DNA from: Candidatus Yonathbacteria bacterium RIFCSPHIGHO2_02_FULL_44_14
GTDB taxonomy: Bacteria; Patescibacteriota; Minisyncoccia; Phycocordibacterales; UBA1550
Length of the DNA stretch: 64,000 nt
Direction of reading: 5' to 3'
Assembly (NCBI GenBank): GCA_001823535.1
Contig: MHUT01000012.1
Span: 355-64,354, forward strand
Below are positions 1,885 to 39,479 of the stretch, in pieces. The position numbers were made by a program, and so were the translations under genes. The notes beneath the pieces are model-generated. The model had not been told where the DNA came from. It made no database searches and worked only from the letters and a program-made list of their open reading frames with translations. Positions within the stretch are counted from its first letter, which is position 1. The number at the start of each line of letters is the position of its first letter.

Positions 1885-3228
1885 ATGACCAACGATAAAA
1901 AAACAGAAAAGCCAAAAAAACTTCGTGAGGAAGATATTGCGAGCCCAAAAGGAATGCGCGACATTCTCGACAAAGAGTATTATGCGTACCAAGGTTTTTT
2001 TGAAAAAGCATCCGACATCGCCACGTATTATGGATTTCGTCCCATTGAAACACCTATACTTGAACGCGAAGCGGTATTTACATCAAGCCTGGGAGTTGGT
2101 ACAGACATCCGTGATAAAGAAATGTACACACTCAAAACCAAAGGTGGCGACCATTTAGTAATGCGCCCCGAGGGTACCGCGGGGATCATGCGCGCGTACA
2201 TCGAAAACGGCATGCAGGCGCTGCCTCAGCCAGTAATGTTTTACAATTACGGTCCCTACTTTCGCCACGAAAATCCACAGCGTGGACGACTTCGCGAACT
2301 CCGTCAATTTGGACTCGAAATTTTAGGTACACCAAAAAGCATCGCTGATGCCCTGATTATCCGCACAATGACCTTGATCCTCGACGAAGCTGGTTTCAAA
2401 AATCTTTCAGTCGAGATCAACAGTATCGGCGACAAGGAATGTCGTTCAGGGTACATGCGTGAGTTCACTAACTATTACAAAAAACATATCGCGACTCTTT
2501 GTCCTGACTGCAAGGAGCGCATTAGGATAAACCCTCTTCGCCTTCTCGATTGCAAGGACTCTCGATGTCAGGATGTAAAAGCAAACGCACCGACCCCTAT
2601 TGATTCACTCTGTAATGATTGCCGTCACCACTTCAAAGAGGTTATCGAATATCTCGAAGAGATGAATATTGCATATCGCATCAACAAAAATCTTGTTCGC
2701 GGACTCGACTATTATACCCGCACTGTATTTGAGATTATTGAGCTTGATCTAGTTCCTGAAGAAGGGGTCATCATTCCAACGCCGCTTTCACTCGGAGGAG
2801 GCGGTCGCTATGACCTTCTTGCAAAATCGCTCGGCAGCAAAAAAGATGTTCCTGCTGTCGGTGGCGCCATCGGTGTTGACCGTGTCATTATGTCGCCATC
2901 ACACAAACCGCTCAATCCGCGCATTTTGAAAAAACCAAAAGTATATTTTATTCAGCTTGGCAACGAAGCAAAGCTCAAGAGCTTCGCAATCATCGAGACC
3001 CTTCGCAAAGCACACGTACCTATCGCACAATCACTTTCGAAAGACGGTCTCGCGCAACAACTCGCCATTGCCGAGCGAAGTGGCGCACCCTACACCATTA
3101 TCTTTGGACAAAAAGAAGCCCTCGACAATACCATCATCGCGCGCAATATGGAAACTCGCTCGCAGGAGACCGTGAAGCTCGCAGACCTCCCCGACTTCGT
3201 GAAGCATTTGAAGGATGAGCTCCGATAG
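1885..3228 (+). CDS. hisS: histidyl-tRNA synthetase
   Basis: ATG at 1885, 5 nt after the lepB stop. Class II aaRS motifs including GGGGRYD; the N-terminal MRDILD...YGF pattern is typical of HisRS. The track ORF's upstream extension from 1777 is discarded. Confidence 0.9.
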   Translation: MTNDKKTEKPKKLREEDIASPKGMRDILDKEYYAYQGFFEKASDIATYYGFRPIETPILEREAVFTSSLGVGTDIRDKEMYTLKTKGGDHLVMRPEGTAGIMRAYIENGMQALPQPVMFYNYGPYFRHENPQRGRLRELRQFGLEILGTPKSIADALIIRTMTLILDEAGFKNLSVEINSIGDKECRSGYMREFTNYYKKHIATLCPDCKERIRINPLRLLDCKDSRCQDVKANAPTPIDSLCNDCRHHFKEVIEYLEEMNIAYRINKNLVRGLDYYTRTVFEIIELDLVPEEGVIIPTPLSLGGGGRYDLLAKSLGSKKDVPAVGGAIGVDRVIMSPSHKPLNPRILKKPKVYFIQLGNEAKLKSFAIIETLRKAHVPIAQSLSKDGLAQQLAIAERSGAPYTIIFGQKEALDNTIIARNMETRSQETVKLADLPDFVKHLKDELR

Positions 3229-36802: not shown

Positions 36803-38479
36803 TTAGATCTCCTCCTTGTCTGGAATCACCACGCCTGACTTCCAGAACTTATGCTTAAGCGCAGTGCGAACATCACGAATCTCTTCGTTACCCATAAGCT
36901 CTAAAATGAGCCACCATGTGAGGATCCCCGCAACCCCGGCCACGAGCCCTTGTATAAAAATACCAAAAAAAGTATCGAGCGAGAGGTATAATCCGAGAAT
37001 TTCCAAAAATTCATATGCGACTAAGCCCGCTATCAGCGCTGAAAATGACCCATGCATAAGTGTGTCCTTCACTGGTGAAAGGAACTTGCCAAATCGACGT
37101 CTGAAGAAATAAATAAGGAGGACTGTATTCAAAAGCATACCCACAGAATATGCGAGGGGCAACATCAGAACTGAAGCGCCAGCGAGCCCCTCAACACGCA
37201 GAAGTGACCCGGTAAAATCTTGCATGAAGGTTGAACTAGTATAAATAGTGAGAAAACTATATCCCGTGACCCCTATCACTACTGCTGATAGTACATTTAC
37301 AAAAAGTGGGATTGAGTTGTTCCCTGTCGCATAAAACCCGCGCACAAAGAGAAGCCCTATGGACTGCGCGACAACTGACACAGTAAATATTGCGAGGCAA
37401 GCTGCGGTTAGTTTGGTTGCATTCCAATCAAATGATCCTGACCCCAAAATAGTGCGTACAATTTGTGCGCGGAGCACGATCATGAGCACCAGTACGGGGA
37501 GCGACCAAAATACTATATGCCGCGCAGCCGCCAATATTTTTTCAAGAAATTTTTTTATATCTTCTTCAGCAAAGTGTTTTGAAAGACCAGGGAACGCCGC
37601 GGTGGCGTAACTAACTCCGATTACCGCAAGAGGTACCGACTGAAGATTGAAAGCAAAATTAAACACCGTAATTGATCCTTGCTGAAGCTTTGCTGCAAAT
37701 GCGACCAGTGCAAAAAGCGCAATTTGGTTTGCGGAGAGACCAATGGTACGAGGCAGAGATACACGTACGACCTCCCAAATGTCCAAGAAGGACGGTACGG
37801 GAGATAGACTCAACGTAAAACCGTTGCGTGAGCTCACAAAGAAATGCACGAAAAAATGAAGGAATGCACCAAGAACAACACCCCACGCGAGTCCGATAAG
37901 CCCGAATGCAGGGTAGAAAAAATATGCGCCTACAATAATACCAATATTGTAGAGCACGGGCGCAAGCGCAAAAGCAAAAAACTTGTGTAGCATTTGTGTC
38001 ACGCTACCGAGCAAATTAGAAAGACCGAGAAGAATTGGGGAAAGGAGGAGGAGGCGAGACATTAAAACAAGCTCGCTGTACGCATCGCCAGTAAATCCAG
38101 GAAATAGCGCGTGGACTAACGTGGGAGCCATGATATATACCCCAATAGACACTGCGATAAGCAATGAAAAAAATACTGTAAAAGTATCATTCAAAAACTT
38201 TTGCGCACGCTCATCACTTTCTCCTGCTTTTTTTGTGAGAATTGGAATTAGGACGAGTGCAGACATAAACGAAGCAATCCCGGCAAATACAAAGTCAGGA
38301 ATACGAAATGCCGCATAGTAAATATCAAGAGTTTGCGAAGCCCCGAACAAATGTGCCAACAATCGATCGCGGAAAAGTGCAAGTATCTGCGAAAGTATTG
38401 CAAAAAGCCCTAGGAGAAATGCAGCTTCGTGGAGTCCGTTCCATTCACGCGAAAAAAGTGAGAGAAGTCTTTTTACCAT
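36803..38479 (-). CDS. murJ: lipid II flippase MurJ (MviN)
   Basis: Polytopic membrane protein. N-terminal LSLFSREWNGL...LFRDRLLAHLFGAS...DIYYAAFRIPDF matches the MurJ N-terminal consensus. ATG at 38479 is chosen so as not to overlap rnpB and its terminator. Candidate promoter TTGCAC, 18-nt spacer, TATACT just upstream. Confidence 0.85.
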   Translation of the reverse strand: MVKRLLSLFSREWNGLHEAAFLLGLFAILSQILALFRDRLLAHLFGASQTLDIYYAAFRIPDFVFAGIASFMSALVLIPILTKKAGESDERAQKFLNDTFTVFFSLLIAVSIGVYIMAPTLVHALFPGFTGDAYSELVLMSRLLLLSPILLGLSNLLGSVTQMLHKFFAFALAPVLYNIGIIVGAYFFYPAFGLIGLAWGVVLGAFLHFFVHFFVSSRNGFTLSLSPVPSFLDIWEVVRVSLPRTIGLSANQIALFALVAFAAKLQQGSITVFNFAFNLQSVPLAVIGVSYATAAFPGLSKHFAEEDIKKFLEKILAAARHIVFWSLPVLVLMIVLRAQIVRTILGSGSFDWNATKLTAACLAIFTVSVVAQSIGLLFVRGFYATGNNSIPLFVNVLSAVVIGVTGYSFLTIYTSSTFMQDFTGSLLRVEGLAGASVLMLPLAYSVGMLLNTVLLIYFFRRRFGKFLSPVKDTLMHGSFSALIAGLVAYEFLEILGLYLSLDTFFGIFIQGLVAGVAGILTWWLILELMGNEEIRDVRTALKHKFWKSGVVIPDKEEI

Positions 38480-38531
38480 AATTATCTTGAGTATACAGTA
38501 GAAGCCGTGCTCTGTGCAAAAATTATACAAT

Positions 38532-38561
38532 GAAGAACCTCGGGTTAAACCGAGGTTCTTC
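38532..38561 (-). terminator. intrinsic terminator at the 3' end of rnpB
   Basis: GAAGAACCTCGG-gttaaa-CCGAGGTTCTTC; on the minus strand a U-rich tract follows. Confidence 0.6.
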
Positions 38562-38564
38562 ATA

Positions 38565-39275
38565 AACTCATATCGATAAGCCGAATTCTGTCCCAGCCCA
38601 TACTGGATGAGCTGAGGATAGTCATTTATCTGGGAGTGCGATTACTCGCACCCTCGAGCGGCACTCCCCCCACCACAATACGCACTACTCGTTCAAACTT
38701 TTTTCTATACGTTTTTTAAGCTCCTCGTAAGCTCCCTTAAACTTTTTCATTCGTAGTTCTCGCGTGCAGGCATCACTTTTATTTGCGTAGGCCTCGTAGT
38801 ACACGAGTTTAAACGGAACTCTATGTTTCGTAGATACATTCTTGCCACTATTGTGCTCAAGAAACCGCCTACGCAAATCAGATGTCTGACCTATGTACAA
38901 TTTGCTATCGACTGAACTTTTTAAAACGTACAAATAATGCATATTGTGGTGGGGGGCACGGCCTTGCACTCAGGTAAGGATTTAGCCGTTTCACCTCTTG
39001 CATTACTACAAGAACTCACCCGCATAAATAAATCTGCGGGTGTCTCTTTCTTTCGTCCGAGACGTCTCTGCTCGCACCTCTGAAATTACTTTCGACGGGC
39101 GTTACCCGCTACCCTTCTCCGAGCATCATTGCTGACACTTGGGAGTGTTCGGACTTTCCTCCCCCCACCAATCTCATCTCCAAACATACTGAGAGGTATT
39201 ATTTTATTTTTAAGCAAAATATCTCCTCTGTCATTTAGAAACAAAATTGGTGGGGGGCGACCATCTGATATGGGT
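38565..39275 (-). ncRNA. rnpB: RNase P RNA (bacterial type) carrying a ~290-nt ORF-containing insertion
   Basis: On the minus strand: P3 helix CCCCCCACCAAU...AUUGGUGGGGGG, then J3/4-P4 AGGAAAGUCCGAAC. Also GGGUAGCGGGUAACGCCCG, GAGGUGAAACGG and GCAAGGCC (P15). P18 is GGGAGUGC...GCACUCCC, followed by AGAUAAAUGACUAUCC and the 3' P4 strand ACAGAAUUCGGCUUAUCG. A -35 TTGCTT / -10 TATAAT promoter ends 7 nt before the predicted 5' end. Confidence 0.75.
38685..38942 (-). CDS. GIY-YIG nuclease domain protein (YhbQ/UPF0213-like, 86 aa) encoded inside the rnpB insertion
   Basis: MHYLYVLKSSVDSKLYIGQTSDLRRRFLEHNSG (GIY...YIG...R...E...N). Same strand as rnpB. Flanked by a perfect 15-bp inverted repeat: CCCCCCACCACAATA at 38666-38680 and TATTGTGGTGGGGGG at 38942-38956. 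Confidence 0.7.
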   Translation of the reverse strand: MHYLYVLKSSVDSKLYIGQTSDLRRRFLEHNSGKNVSTKHRVPFKLVYYEAYANKSDACTRELRMKKFKGAYEELKKRIEKSLNE

Positions 39276-39281
39276 GAGCTT

Positions 39282-39309
39282 ATTATACCACTATTTTGCA
39301 GAAAAGCAA
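39282..39309 (-). promoter_or_regulatory. candidate sigma70-type promoter of rnpB
   Basis: On the minus strand: TTGCTT, 16-nt spacer, TATAAT; TSS predicted at ~39275. Confidence 0.45.
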
Positions 39310-39329
39310 ACATAATGCATGTGCCACGT

Positions 39330-39370
39330 AAAAATCCCCAGCCACTCTAAGGTGGCTGGGGATTTTTTTA
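39330..39370 (-). terminator. intrinsic terminator after the DUF192 gene
   Basis: AAAATCCCCAGCCAC-tctaa-GGTGGCTGGGGATTTT. Confidence 0.65.
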
Positions 39371-39479
39371 GGCTTTATTATTTCTTTGCTGCCTTCTTTG
39401 GCTTCTTTTTTTCCTTGTGTGCGTCTTTGCCTTTTGCCATAATATTTTTTATAAAAAATTATCTTATTCGACCGTCTTC

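Follow-up and report, generated by a model that had tools for sequence, protein, structure and literature searches.

Insertions that encode proteins have been described in the ribosomal RNA genes of the Candidate Phyla Radiation (CPR), where 16S and 23S insertions that are not introns carry open reading frames (ORFs) of the GIY-YIG family (Tsurumaki et al. 2024, PMC11270868; Brown et al. 2015, as cited there); ribonuclease P (RNase P) is not mentioned in that study. The RNase P RNAs of CPR bacteria are diverged, with "large extensions of helices" such as an extended P15 and scores below Rfam thresholds, and were refolded manually; no ORFs were described in them (Lui, Nielsen and Arkin 2021, PMC8172020). 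A 2026 survey of introns in the tRNA genes of Patescibacteria is silent on both GIY-YIG and RNase P. Here we describe the RNase P RNA gene (rnpB) present on a 64-kb stretch of DNA (64,000 nucleotides, hereafter the window) from Candidatus Yonathbacteria, an ultra-small bacterium of the CPR/Patescibacteria; this gene carries a GIY-YIG ORF within the RNA. A first-pass annotation of the window had noticed this ORF and stated that such insertions are known in CPR rRNA genes, as the 2024 study documents, and that none was known for an RNase P RNA. The literature searched agrees on the latter point: within an incomplete coverage, no ORF of any kind was found described inside a bacterial RNase P RNA and no paper connected GIY-YIG with that RNA, the remaining hits being mitochondrial-genome or unrelated work, nor was any paper joining YhbQ and GIY-YIG.

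Our analysis indicates that two peripheral hairpins of this rnpB have given way to cassettes of one family, probably mobile and bounded by hairpins, and that one of the two would carry a selfish nuclease gene insulated by its helix and co-transcribed with the ribozyme. The P16/17 position would hold an autonomous copy with start and stop codons within its arms, and P3 an ORF-less copy with the same ends. The elements concerned are:

38666..38956, minus strand: GIY-YIG cassette of 291 nt, in place of the native P16 hairpin (insert-free relatives and RF00010 alignment)
38930..38956, minus strand: 5' arm of the closing helix, with the AUG within it at 38942-38940 (inverted repeat I1)
38666..38692, minus strand: 3' arm of the closing helix, with the stop codon UAG within it at 38687-38685 (inverted repeat I1)
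38685..38942, minus strand: GIY-YIG ORF, 85 amino acids (aa) plus stop, UPF0213/SLX1-like clade, sense to rnpB (PF01541)
39161..39257, minus strand: ORF-less hairpin module of 97 nt, in place of native P3, with arms CCCCCCACCAAUUUUGUUUC... and ...AUUGGUGGGGGG (inverted repeat I2)

The gene that hosts them is a bacterial type-A rnpB on the minus strand (39275-38566), about 710 nt long including the two inserted modules. As had been claimed at first pass, its parts stand in the correct order of a bacterial RNase P RNA: a permissive local search with the full RF00010 model matched 38570-39176 over model positions 1-367 (51.1 bits, local E=1.2e-14), and the alignment placed 272 extra nt exactly at the 20-nt P16/P17 tip of the model. 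This score misses the curated gathering score of 100 bits. A Rfam scan of the whole window at gathering thresholds returned no RNase P, only six tRNAs and one LOOT RNA, and a local Rfam scan of the rnpB region gave no other family better than E=0.1. The low score is due to the inserted modules, since syntenic insert-free orthologues scored 106-128 bits, above the gathering score, against 51 bits for the window and 39 and 31 bits for the module-bearing relatives L109 and L007 (L numbers designate the related loci); these natural orthologues supplied the comparison with and without the insertion that had been suggested at first pass. L033, which combines a normal P3 with a cassette at P16/17, scored 117 bits. 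The universally conserved positions of RNase P RNA are all intact in the window, and the locus is probably the functional RNase P RNA gene of Candidatus Yonathbacteria (Parcubacteria/CPR), with cleavage of pre-tRNA as its predicted role.

To define what the cassette had displaced, intervals between conserved rnpB landmarks were compared among 41 related loci, with the downstream MurJ gene as the synteny anchor. Insert-free relatives read GUG-UCGCGCGCAAGCGCGA-AGU at P16, whereas the window reads GUG, 291 nt, AGU. As the GUG and AGU flanks are unchanged, the native P16 hairpin, 16 nt long, has been replaced and not interrupted; the first-pass annotation was right on the position of its insertion of about 290 nt but not in calling it an insertion, as the whole native hairpin is exchanged between unchanged flanks. 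The same flank-preserving swap was seen at P3, at the P5/P7 hairpin and at P19. The P15-P18 interval measured 30 nt in most relatives, among them L132, L108, L102 and L133, and 292-305 nt in the window, L007, L010, L109, L033 and L059, so that close relatives are polymorphic for presence or absence at one site of a conserved host gene. The rnpB cores closest to that of the window belong to relatives without either module (L108, 92%; L133, 90%; L102 and L132, 88%), and module-bearing relatives are less close (L007, 81%; L010, 80%). Module occupancy is thus patchy and not congruent with the identity of the rnpB core.

The second site, P3, carries no ORF. Native P3 is short in relatives (GCUCCUGCGCAAGCAGGGG), the insert-free counterpart of 39257-39161 being CUCCUGCGCAAGCAGGGG, and the 97-nt module stands in its place in the window and in the L007 lineage. 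The first-pass annotation had taken this stem for the P3 helix; the stem is present, but it is the inserted module (39257-39161) and not an ordinary P3. The module folds as a single long hairpin (-48.6 kcal/mol, z=-10). Its ends, CCCCCCACCA and UGGUGGGGGG, are the same as the ends of the P16/17 cassette, and its outer arms, GCCCCCCACCA and UGGUGGGGGGAG, are identical to those of the ORF-bearing unit. The 10-mer CCCCCCACCA occurs four times in 64 kb, each time in an rnpB module arm, against an expectation of 1.6 when one mismatch is permitted. The P3 modules of the window and of L007 agree at 93 of 97 positions (96%), and the 17 nt that precede them at 100%; elsewhere these two loci are 74% identical in MurJ, 74% in the P8-P15 core, 83% in the 3' part of rnpB and 79% in the ORF. 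That a peripheral hairpin should be better conserved than the catalytic core points most readily to recent lateral exchange or gene conversion, and the identity of module and 5' flank (96-100%) between hosts that are otherwise 74% identical gives a hint of co-conversion. The possibility that the module is a decayed ORF was considered and rejected: tblastn found no GIY-YIG similarity elsewhere in the window, and no resemblance was evident on reading.

At P16/17, the first-pass annotation had described a perfect 15-bp closing helix. The helix is real but its length was understated: the arms are 27 nt each and form 23 Watson-Crick and four G·U pairs. The 306-nt insert region folds at -111.9 kcal/mol (z=-7.8), in line with the fold expected at first pass. 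Across the family, nearly all copies are bracketed by such a helix (duplex z of -4 to -10), with arms of about 15-27 nt. Their outer ends follow one pattern common to several contexts, 5'-CCCC-N-C-N-C...G-N-G-N-GGGG-3', and the inner parts vary while staying complementary. A set of 22 ungapped arm constructs, drawn from the RNase P, rRNA and unclassified contexts, had 99% of its cells paired and double-sided changes at 13 of 14 pairs; six constructs that were out of register in the MAFFT alignment had been excluded from the counting of pairs. None of 500 shuffles reached the observed values, and slid registers fell to 44-60% paired.

Covariation of inverted repeats might reflect DNA or RNA, and the two mismatches that arise from transitions were therefore compared. 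G·U and A·C arise equally by transitions in DNA, and only G·U is tolerated in the sense RNA. With the register set by Watson-Crick pairs only and counts made in a fixed inner window, RNase P contexts had 25 G·U and 5 A·C (p=3e-4), all contexts together 64 and 33 (p=0.002), and tRNA-flank contexts 6 and 11. The excess in RNase P contexts indicates that the helix forms, and is selected, in the sense rnpB transcript. As the arms pair in RNA, the foreign sequence amounts to one long extra surface hairpin and the catalytic core could still fold. A further idea, that cassettes always sit on a longer host helix, was rejected, as pairing of the flanks outside the arms is not general.

The ORF within the cassette matched the GIY-YIG profile PF01541 with 59.5 bits (cut-off 22.6, E=4.1e-16), which bears out the intact sense GIY-YIG ORF reported at first pass. 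The catalytic residues of GIY-YIG (Y5, Y16, R26, H30 and E62) are invariant in 26 family members. The ratio of nonsynonymous to synonymous substitution rates (dN/dS) was 0.034 between the window and L007, 0.105 between the window and L010 and 0.088 between L007 and L010, with synonymous sites near saturation. By this measure the ORF is under strong purifying selection and is kept intact, which contradicts the suggestion, made at first pass, of a degenerate element. A profile search of the PDB found the UPF0213 proteins 1zg2/BH0048 (E=3e-12) and 1ywl/EF2693, then SLX1 and I-TevI. An alignment of 14 protein sequences served as input for structure prediction and for the genome scan reported below. 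The AlphaFold2 model has a GIY-YIG alpha/beta fold (predicted local distance difference test score, pLDDT, 83), and Foldseek placed it closest to 1zg2 (BH0048, UPF0213), then to Slx1 nuclease domains (template modelling score, TM, 0.64-0.66; root-mean-square deviation 1.7-3.0 Å); the I-TevI catalytic domain was more distant (TM 0.46) and UvrC N-terminal domains also matched. No NCBIfam family scored above its own cut-off; TIGR01453, the group I intron endonuclease family, reached 22 bits against a cut-off of 56. In both Pfam and the AlphaFold2 model, the 85-aa protein consists of the catalytic domain alone, with no sequence-specific DNA-binding module.

No promoter belonging to the cassette itself was found. 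Together with the constant sense orientation of cassettes in stable-RNA genes (see below), this indicates that the rnpB promoter would drive transcription of the cassette within the precursor of the ribozyme. With the ORF in sense inside rnpB, one primary transcript has to serve as mRNA and as precursor of the ribozyme, as the first-pass annotation had proposed and as the sense orientation of all RNase P-embedded copies supports. An artefact of assembly is ruled out by the occurrence of the identical protein, in the same arrangement, on 23 contigs from independent assemblies (JGI, ENA, NCBI and Logan).

Homologues of the cassette ORF were found in 38 clusters of the protein database and traced to contigs. 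In addition, a scan of species-representative genomes yielded at least 551 relatives, and 80 loci were read and classified by RNase P signature motifs, ARAGORN and Rfam. The expectation that related genomes would carry the same insertion held: it is present in several species and belongs to a family that recurs across Patescibacteria. The cassette lies inside the RNase P RNA, at P3, P16/17 or P19 and always in sense, in at least 17 of the 80 species-level loci, and the lineages of the window, L013 and L109 are additional cases. The ORF stands between the two P4 strands of rnpB at five of the 80 loci; it occupies P16/17 in L015, L016, L033 and L059 and the P19 position in L091, where the second ORF of L016 also lies. 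At 12 of the 80 loci it is in P3 and ends 17-35 nt before GGAAAGUCC. At 12 of 13 loci, the stretch that immediately precedes the P3 cassette pairs with the 3'-terminal P1 strand (z of -2.5 to -7.2), which shows that the ORF is truly internal to the RNase P RNA. Other copies are immediately upstream of a tRNA on the same strand (26/80, mostly tRNA-Ala) or inside or abutting 16S or 23S rRNA genes, in sense (9/80); members of the same ORF family lie in sense inside 23S (L021, L043, L047, L064) and 16S (L081, L090). About 27 of the 80 loci belong to unclassified contexts. Every copy embedded in a stable RNA is in sense, and the lone exception near rnpB, L072, is outside the gene.

Two different GIY-YIG ORFs are present in one rnpB in L010 and L016, at P16/17 and at P19. 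The second (L010 2858-3121; L016 1858-2121) is 36% identical, occupies the P19 position and is enclosed by CCAGCUCCAGUUUUAGG and CCUAAAACUGGGGCUGG. At P5/P7, L010 also has an ORF-less hairpin (2272-2337, between P5 and P7) with arms that match, and are near-identical to, those of this second ORF.

Movement between sites and hosts is suggested by several further observations. One arm type, CCCCCACCACUUU, surrounds the ORF at two different sites, P3 (L013 and L029) and P16/17 (L033). ORF-less hairpins that have the arms of the resident ORF copy are found in P3 of the window, in P3 and the P5/P7 hairpin of L007, in P12 of L013 and in P19 of L109. L128 carries two ORF-less palindromes, in P3 and P19, that are 93% identical, and no ORF in rnpB. 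Conserved terminal inverted repeats are therefore common to ORF-bearing and ORF-less copies, as in pairs of autonomous and non-autonomous elements. Combined, these comparisons of sequences show that the cassette substitutes for what appears to be a dispensable surface hairpin, and that cassettes and their ORF-less kin change sites and hosts.

Modules of other kinds are present, among them two ORF-less hairpin families in rnpB of the same clade. An ORF-less module of about 97 nt, UCCAGCACCUAUUUUGUACA...UGUACAAAAUAGGUGCUGGA, is in P9 of L101 and L105 and in P12 of L128. A module of 132-170 nt that begins with GCGUAGCACGCAGUCCAUAAAG is inside the native P16 stem/loop of L100, L104 and L129. A module of 141-147 nt, CCCCCAUUAAUCC...GGUAUUAAUGGGGG, is nested in the rnpB terminator hairpin (AACCCGA...UCGGGUU), outside the mature RNA, in L007 (2888-3028) and L105 (1913-2059). 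Judged from their placement, these other module families move as well.

Outside rnpB, the surroundings of the cassettes have features of their own. In tRNA contexts (L022, L025, L030, L038, L048, L055; from about 70 nt before the ORF to where the tRNA starts), the opening 10-11 nt of the downstream tRNA stand as a direct repeat on both sides of the hairpin-bounded unit. The sequence repeated differs with the tRNA (GGGCCGUUAGC for Ala, GGGCGGUUAGC for Val), and RNase P sites have no such repeat. At these tRNAs, G1-G3 are paired with the CCC of the 5' arm. In L014 (2740-2800), and likewise in L019, L026 and L028, the upstream ORF reads into a duplicated tRNA 5' fragment and has its stop inside GGGCCCUUAG, and in this arrangement an empty 22-nt hairpin, CCCCUCUGCUCGCGAGCAGAGGGG, precedes the intact tRNA-Ala. 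The cassettes of L083, L086 and L069 (near 1456-1775 in locus coordinates) abut the DnaA-box sequence TTATCCACA or its complement, with 6-nt direct repeats at L083 (GTTATC) and L086 (GATAAC). TTGAC repeats were seen at L042, L070 and L088, and ATG repeats beside a gene start at L073 and L085. The sequence of these sites suggests that the family also targets other conserved DNA motifs.

Introns were met next to two cassettes: in L014, a group I intron (1984-2234, minus strand; RF00028, 58 bits) apparently lies within tRNA-like sequence just upstream of the GIY-YIG/tRNA-Ala unit, and in L041 a fragment of group II intron D1-D4 (786-875; RF01998, 50 bits) lies between the 3' end of 16S and the GIY-YIG cassette. 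Typical cassettes also occur in metagenome-assembled genomes labelled Gammaproteobacteria, Bdellovibrionales, Methylobacter, Pseudomonadales, Leptospirales and Scalindua (L021, L053, L057, L066, L067, L068, L075, L091); either these are mis-binned Patescibacteria contigs or the host range is wider. The family is rare on viral contigs, with only five distant matches in IMG/VR, and a phage origin of the cassette was rejected for that reason.

How such a unit could persist and spread can be outlined. The closing helix would insulate the fold of the ribozyme from the foreign sequence, and the nuclease would promote spread at the DNA level. At an occupied site, the insert-free allele may be cut and then repaired by recombination through the conserved rnpB flanks, in a homing-like manner; such replacement would account for spread at the same site without target duplications. 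New hairpins might occasionally be colonised by a hairpin- or structure-directed step that also mobilises ORF-less copies, a speculation in keeping with the kinship to Slx1. Translation would probably begin on the nascent transcript, while the AUG is not yet sequestered by the 3' arm, or once the helix has been cleaved.

A number of points weigh against a selfish mobile cassette as the explanation. The protein is a bare 85-aa catalytic domain without a DNA-binding domain, unlike characterised GIY-YIG homing endonucleases, and has no evident means of target recognition. The AUG has no Shine-Dalgarno sequence and lies 14 nt into a 27-bp helix, so that poor translation from the folded RNA can be argued. 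The ORF cassette has diverged like the host genes (79-81% between the window and L007 or L010, against 74-83%), which fits long vertical residence as well as mobility, and in the lineages of the window, L007 and L010 the cassette may, from these identities, be an old resident. RNase P sites show no target-site duplication, whereas the tRNA, DnaA-box and TTGAC contexts have direct repeats of variable length (3-11 nt), and one insertion mechanism does not obviously cover all contexts. Beyond rnpB, the 64-kb window has no further occurrence of the arm motif; typical miniature inverted-repeat transposable elements (MITEs) are dispersed in a way that the modules here are not, and a dispersed MITE was rejected for this stretch on that ground. 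In rRNA genes, GIY-YIG ORFs were found to be sparse and judged "outside the context of homing" (Tsurumaki et al., PMC11270868). Finally, transcription through the cassette, its translation, the activity of the nuclease and the form of the mature RNA are all things that we infer.

Several other explanations have to be set beside the mobile cassette. One of them bears on the fate of the RNA: it competes with stable retention of the expansion, which had been considered at first pass, and not with the mobility of the cassette. As in an intervening sequence (IVS), RNase III or a similar enzyme would cut the closing helix and take the cassette out without religation, leaving an RNase P RNA in two pieces that P1, P2, P4 and P15 would keep joined, and freeing a near-leaderless nuclease mRNA. 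Split RNase P RNAs are active in vitro. The 27-bp helix, with G·U pairs as its only irregularities, is long enough to be a substrate of RNase III; like 23S IVSs, the cassette takes the place of a hairpin tip; and cleavage would free the AUG located 14 nt inside the helix. The same cassette family is found in 16S and 23S genes, and non-intron insertions in CPR rRNAs coincide with known sites of RNase III-processed IVSs (PMC11270868), the existence of which in CPR is also suggested in that paper. On the other hand, the helix of the ORF-less P3 module is equally long, and cutting at P3 too would produce a three-piece ribozyme, while the G·U enrichment shows formation of the helix only and not its cleavage. 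We regard such processing as a serious possibility that falls short of being the expected outcome. Another proposal concerns the mechanism of movement and is bolder; we put it forward tentatively and think it rather unlikely in this full form. By "hairpin swapping", a new class of bacterial mobile element, in which complementary arms with conserved CCCC-N-C-N-C termini frame a minimal SLX1-like nuclease, would replace existing DNA hairpins or cruciforms, by neither classical homing nor transposition, and ORF-less palindromes would be mobilised in trans. If this were true, the elements would persist preferentially in the helix tips of stable RNAs (P3, P9, P12, P16/17 and P19 of RNase P, rRNA, terminators), because the arms re-create a tolerated RNA hairpin, and RNase P RNA would be a modular ribozyme with peripheral helices exchanged by a selfish element and a precursor doubling as the mRNA of that element.

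A domesticated host gene is a different matter: the nuclease would have a cellular role, for instance in the processing or repair of RNA or DNA, and it would stay within rnpB for the sake of expression from strong constitutive stable-RNA promoters and not through selfish spread. Such a role would agree with the strong purifying selection (dN/dS of 0.03-0.10), with the strictly sense orientation in all stable-RNA contexts and with a divergence of the cassette similar to that of the host, and a prokaryotic Slx1-like GIY-YIG domain fused to a TrmH tRNA methyltransferase has led to the suggestion of a role in RNA metabolism (Dunin-Horkawicz et al., PMC1564403). However, the closest relatives lack the gene at this locus, its location varies by genome (P3, P16/17, P19, rRNA, tRNA flanks), some rnpB genes such as that of L010 carry two different copies, ORF-less copies have the same termini, and hosts with 74% identity elsewhere have P3 modules that agree at 96%. 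These are hallmarks of a mobile element and make domestication improbable. A spliced intron, either a degenerate group I or II intron or a new ribozyme, with religation of the RNase P RNA, had been offered as an option at first pass. Although group I introns abound in the stable-RNA genes of Patescibacteria (PMC13011429, PMC11270868) and one apparently lies in a neighbouring tRNA in L014, no Rfam intron family matches 38450-39350 at E<=10, the 258-nt ORF and the arms nearly fill the 291-nt unit and leave no room for a ribozyme core, and all rRNA-borne GIY-YIG ORFs are in insertions unlike either intron class (PMC11270868); we consider an intron very improbable and that option does not stand. 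An assembly chimera or a decaying rnpB pseudogene might be suspected from the metagenome-assembled source and from the RF00010 score below gathering, but the identical arrangement recurs on the 23 contigs of independent projects and in several species, the conserved positions are intact, the core is 88-92% identical to that of orthologues above the gathering score and the ORF is under purifying selection, so that this explanation has next to no likelihood.

The signals and conserved parts of the rest of the rnpB locus, read in the direction of transcription, are:

39282..39309, minus strand: rnpB promoter, with a weak -35-like TTGCTT at 39309-39304 and an extended -10 TGGTATAAT at 39290-39282 (direct reading)
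39274-39258, minus strand: 5' strands of P1 and P2 (direct reading)
39141..39160, minus strand: J3/4 and P4 5' strand, AGGAAAGUCCGAACACUC (reading and RF00010 alignment)
39160-39147, minus strand: conserved block AGGAAAGUCCGAAC (direct reading)
39114-39096, minus strand: conserved block GGGUAGCGGGUAACGCCCG (direct reading)
38997-38986, minus strand: conserved block GAGGUGAAACGG (direct reading)
38967-38960, minus strand: P15 5' strand GCAAGGCC (RF00010 alignment and relatives)
38957..38967, minus strand: P15 5' strand and J15/16 GUG, the left flank of the swap (identical in insert-free relatives)
38632..38653, minus strand: P18 hairpin GGGUGCGA-GUAA-UCGCACUC, 3' strand also given as UCGCACUCC (RF00010 alignment)
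38630-38615, minus strand: conserved block AGAUAAAUGACUAUCC (direct reading)
38591-38574, minus strand: P4 3' strand ACAGAAUUCGGCUUAUCG (reading and RF00010 alignment)
38567..38591, minus strand: P4 3' strand ACAGAAUUCGGCUUAUCG with P1 3' strand GAUAUGAG (reading and RF00010 alignment)
38530..38563, minus strand: intrinsic-terminator-like hairpin, 14 pairs followed by a T-rich tail, directly 3' of rnpB (terminator scan)

All the sequence elements listed in the first-pass annotation are present on the minus strand where it had placed them. The J3/4-P4 strands (AGGAAAGUCCG ... ACAGAAnnCGGCUUA), the P8 GGUAACGCC loop, P15 and P18 follow in canonical order, and the pairings CAUAUC/GAUAUG (P1) and GAUGGUC/GACUAUC (P2) were read from the sequence. 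The P18 hairpin, also present in L108, L132 and L133, had been recognised at first pass but with the wrong pairing: in place of GGGAGUGC...GCACUCCC, the RF00010 alignment and the relatives support the pairing given in the list. The proposed promoter stands for its extended -10, as (G/A)TGGTATAAT is kept at the same distance upstream of rnpB in L007, L101, L105, L107, L117, L125 and L133. Its -35 is weak, with only 3/6 matches, and for this reason the promoter was not flagged by the consensus scan. The terminator scan recovered the predicted 3' hairpin with its T-rich tail (38563-38530). Directly upstream of rnpB is a tiny lysine-rich ORF, MAKGKDAHKEKKKPKKAAKK (39378-39440, minus strand), with a terminator-like hairpin of its own (39367-39330); near-identical peptides, MAKGRDAHKEKKKPKKSAKK and MAKGRDAHKEVKKPKKNKK, are found at the same position in L007 and L010. 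The LOOT RNA of the window, a large structured RNA (RF03000; 28104-28236, minus strand), scored 70 bits, its gathering score being 46.4.

RNase P RNA belongs to the small set of universal ribozymes, and a protein gene inside it recurs across Patescibacteria. Module by module, the replacements account for the failure of standard detection on CPR RNase P RNAs (31-51 bits, as compared with 106-128 for insert-free orthologues), and consensus arms together with landmark intervals could improve the annotation of CPR non-coding RNAs. The cassettes are also natural experiments on which peripheral helices of RNase P tolerate inserts of 100-300 nt. For the puzzling "non-intron GIY-YIG" insertions of rRNA, they provide a link to a defined cassette, one that has conserved ends, arms that covary and derivatives lacking the ORF. 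They raise the question of how a nuclease reduced to its catalytic domain, with nearest characterised relatives that cut branched DNA, spreads a hairpin-bounded gene through essential RNA genes.

Compared with known systems, the locus is closest to the CPR rRNA insertions (PMC11270868), with which it shares the protein family, the sense orientation, the lack of a group I or II signature, the location at stem-loop tips of an essential stable RNA and the host group, Patescibacteria. As GIY-YIG ORFs in non-intron rRNA insertions are already published, the RNase P case extends a known kind and is not without precedent. The difference is the host, here the RNase P ribozyme and not 16S or 23S rRNA; in addition, conserved termini, covarying arms, hairpin-for-hairpin replacement, ORF-less twins and the recurrent use of P3, P16/17 and P19 are seen here and not described there. 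The diverged CPR RNase P RNAs (PMC8172020) resemble that of the window in their sub-threshold Rfam scores and helix extensions; no ORFs, cassettes or mobile modules were described in them, whereas here the extensions are discrete replaceable modules, one of them protein-coding.

RNase III-processed 23S IVSs are likewise foreign hairpins at the tip of a peripheral helix, with a long closing helix (at least about 20 bp) and a sporadic spread that suggests lateral transfer. Classical 23S IVSs have another host RNA, are about 100-200 nt long and in some cases encode the unrelated 23S_rRNA_IVP; their cleavage has been demonstrated, and that of the cassette is putative. With the GIY-YIG homing endonucleases I-TevI and Seg, the cassette has in common the catalytic Y, Y, R, H and E, highly conserved host genes and a patchy presence at a fixed site. 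It differs from them in a protein of 85 aa with no linker or DNA-binding domain, in the absence of an intron and in the presence of inverted-repeat arms and ORF-less derivatives, and the protein is structurally closer to UPF0213/Slx1 (TM 0.64-0.66) than to I-TevI (0.46).

In its organisation, the family recalls the repetitive extragenic palindromes with their associated transposases (REP/RAYT, or REPtron), MITEs and the Rickettsia palindromic elements, in which a small nuclease-type gene is flanked by inverted palindromic repeats and accompanied by ORF-less copies, as here. Palindromic elements are tolerated inside functional genes because the fold is preserved, which is a further likeness to the cassettes. 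The enzyme is of the HUH/Y1 type in REP/RAYT and GIY-YIG here. REP/RAYT elements and MITEs are dispersed between genes, whereas in the DNA sampled the cassettes are concentrated in stable-RNA genes (all four arm motifs of the 64 kb being in rnpB) and have no target-site duplication at RNase P. Against this background, RNase P RNA as a host and the anatomy of the cassette appear to be unreported in the literature compared.

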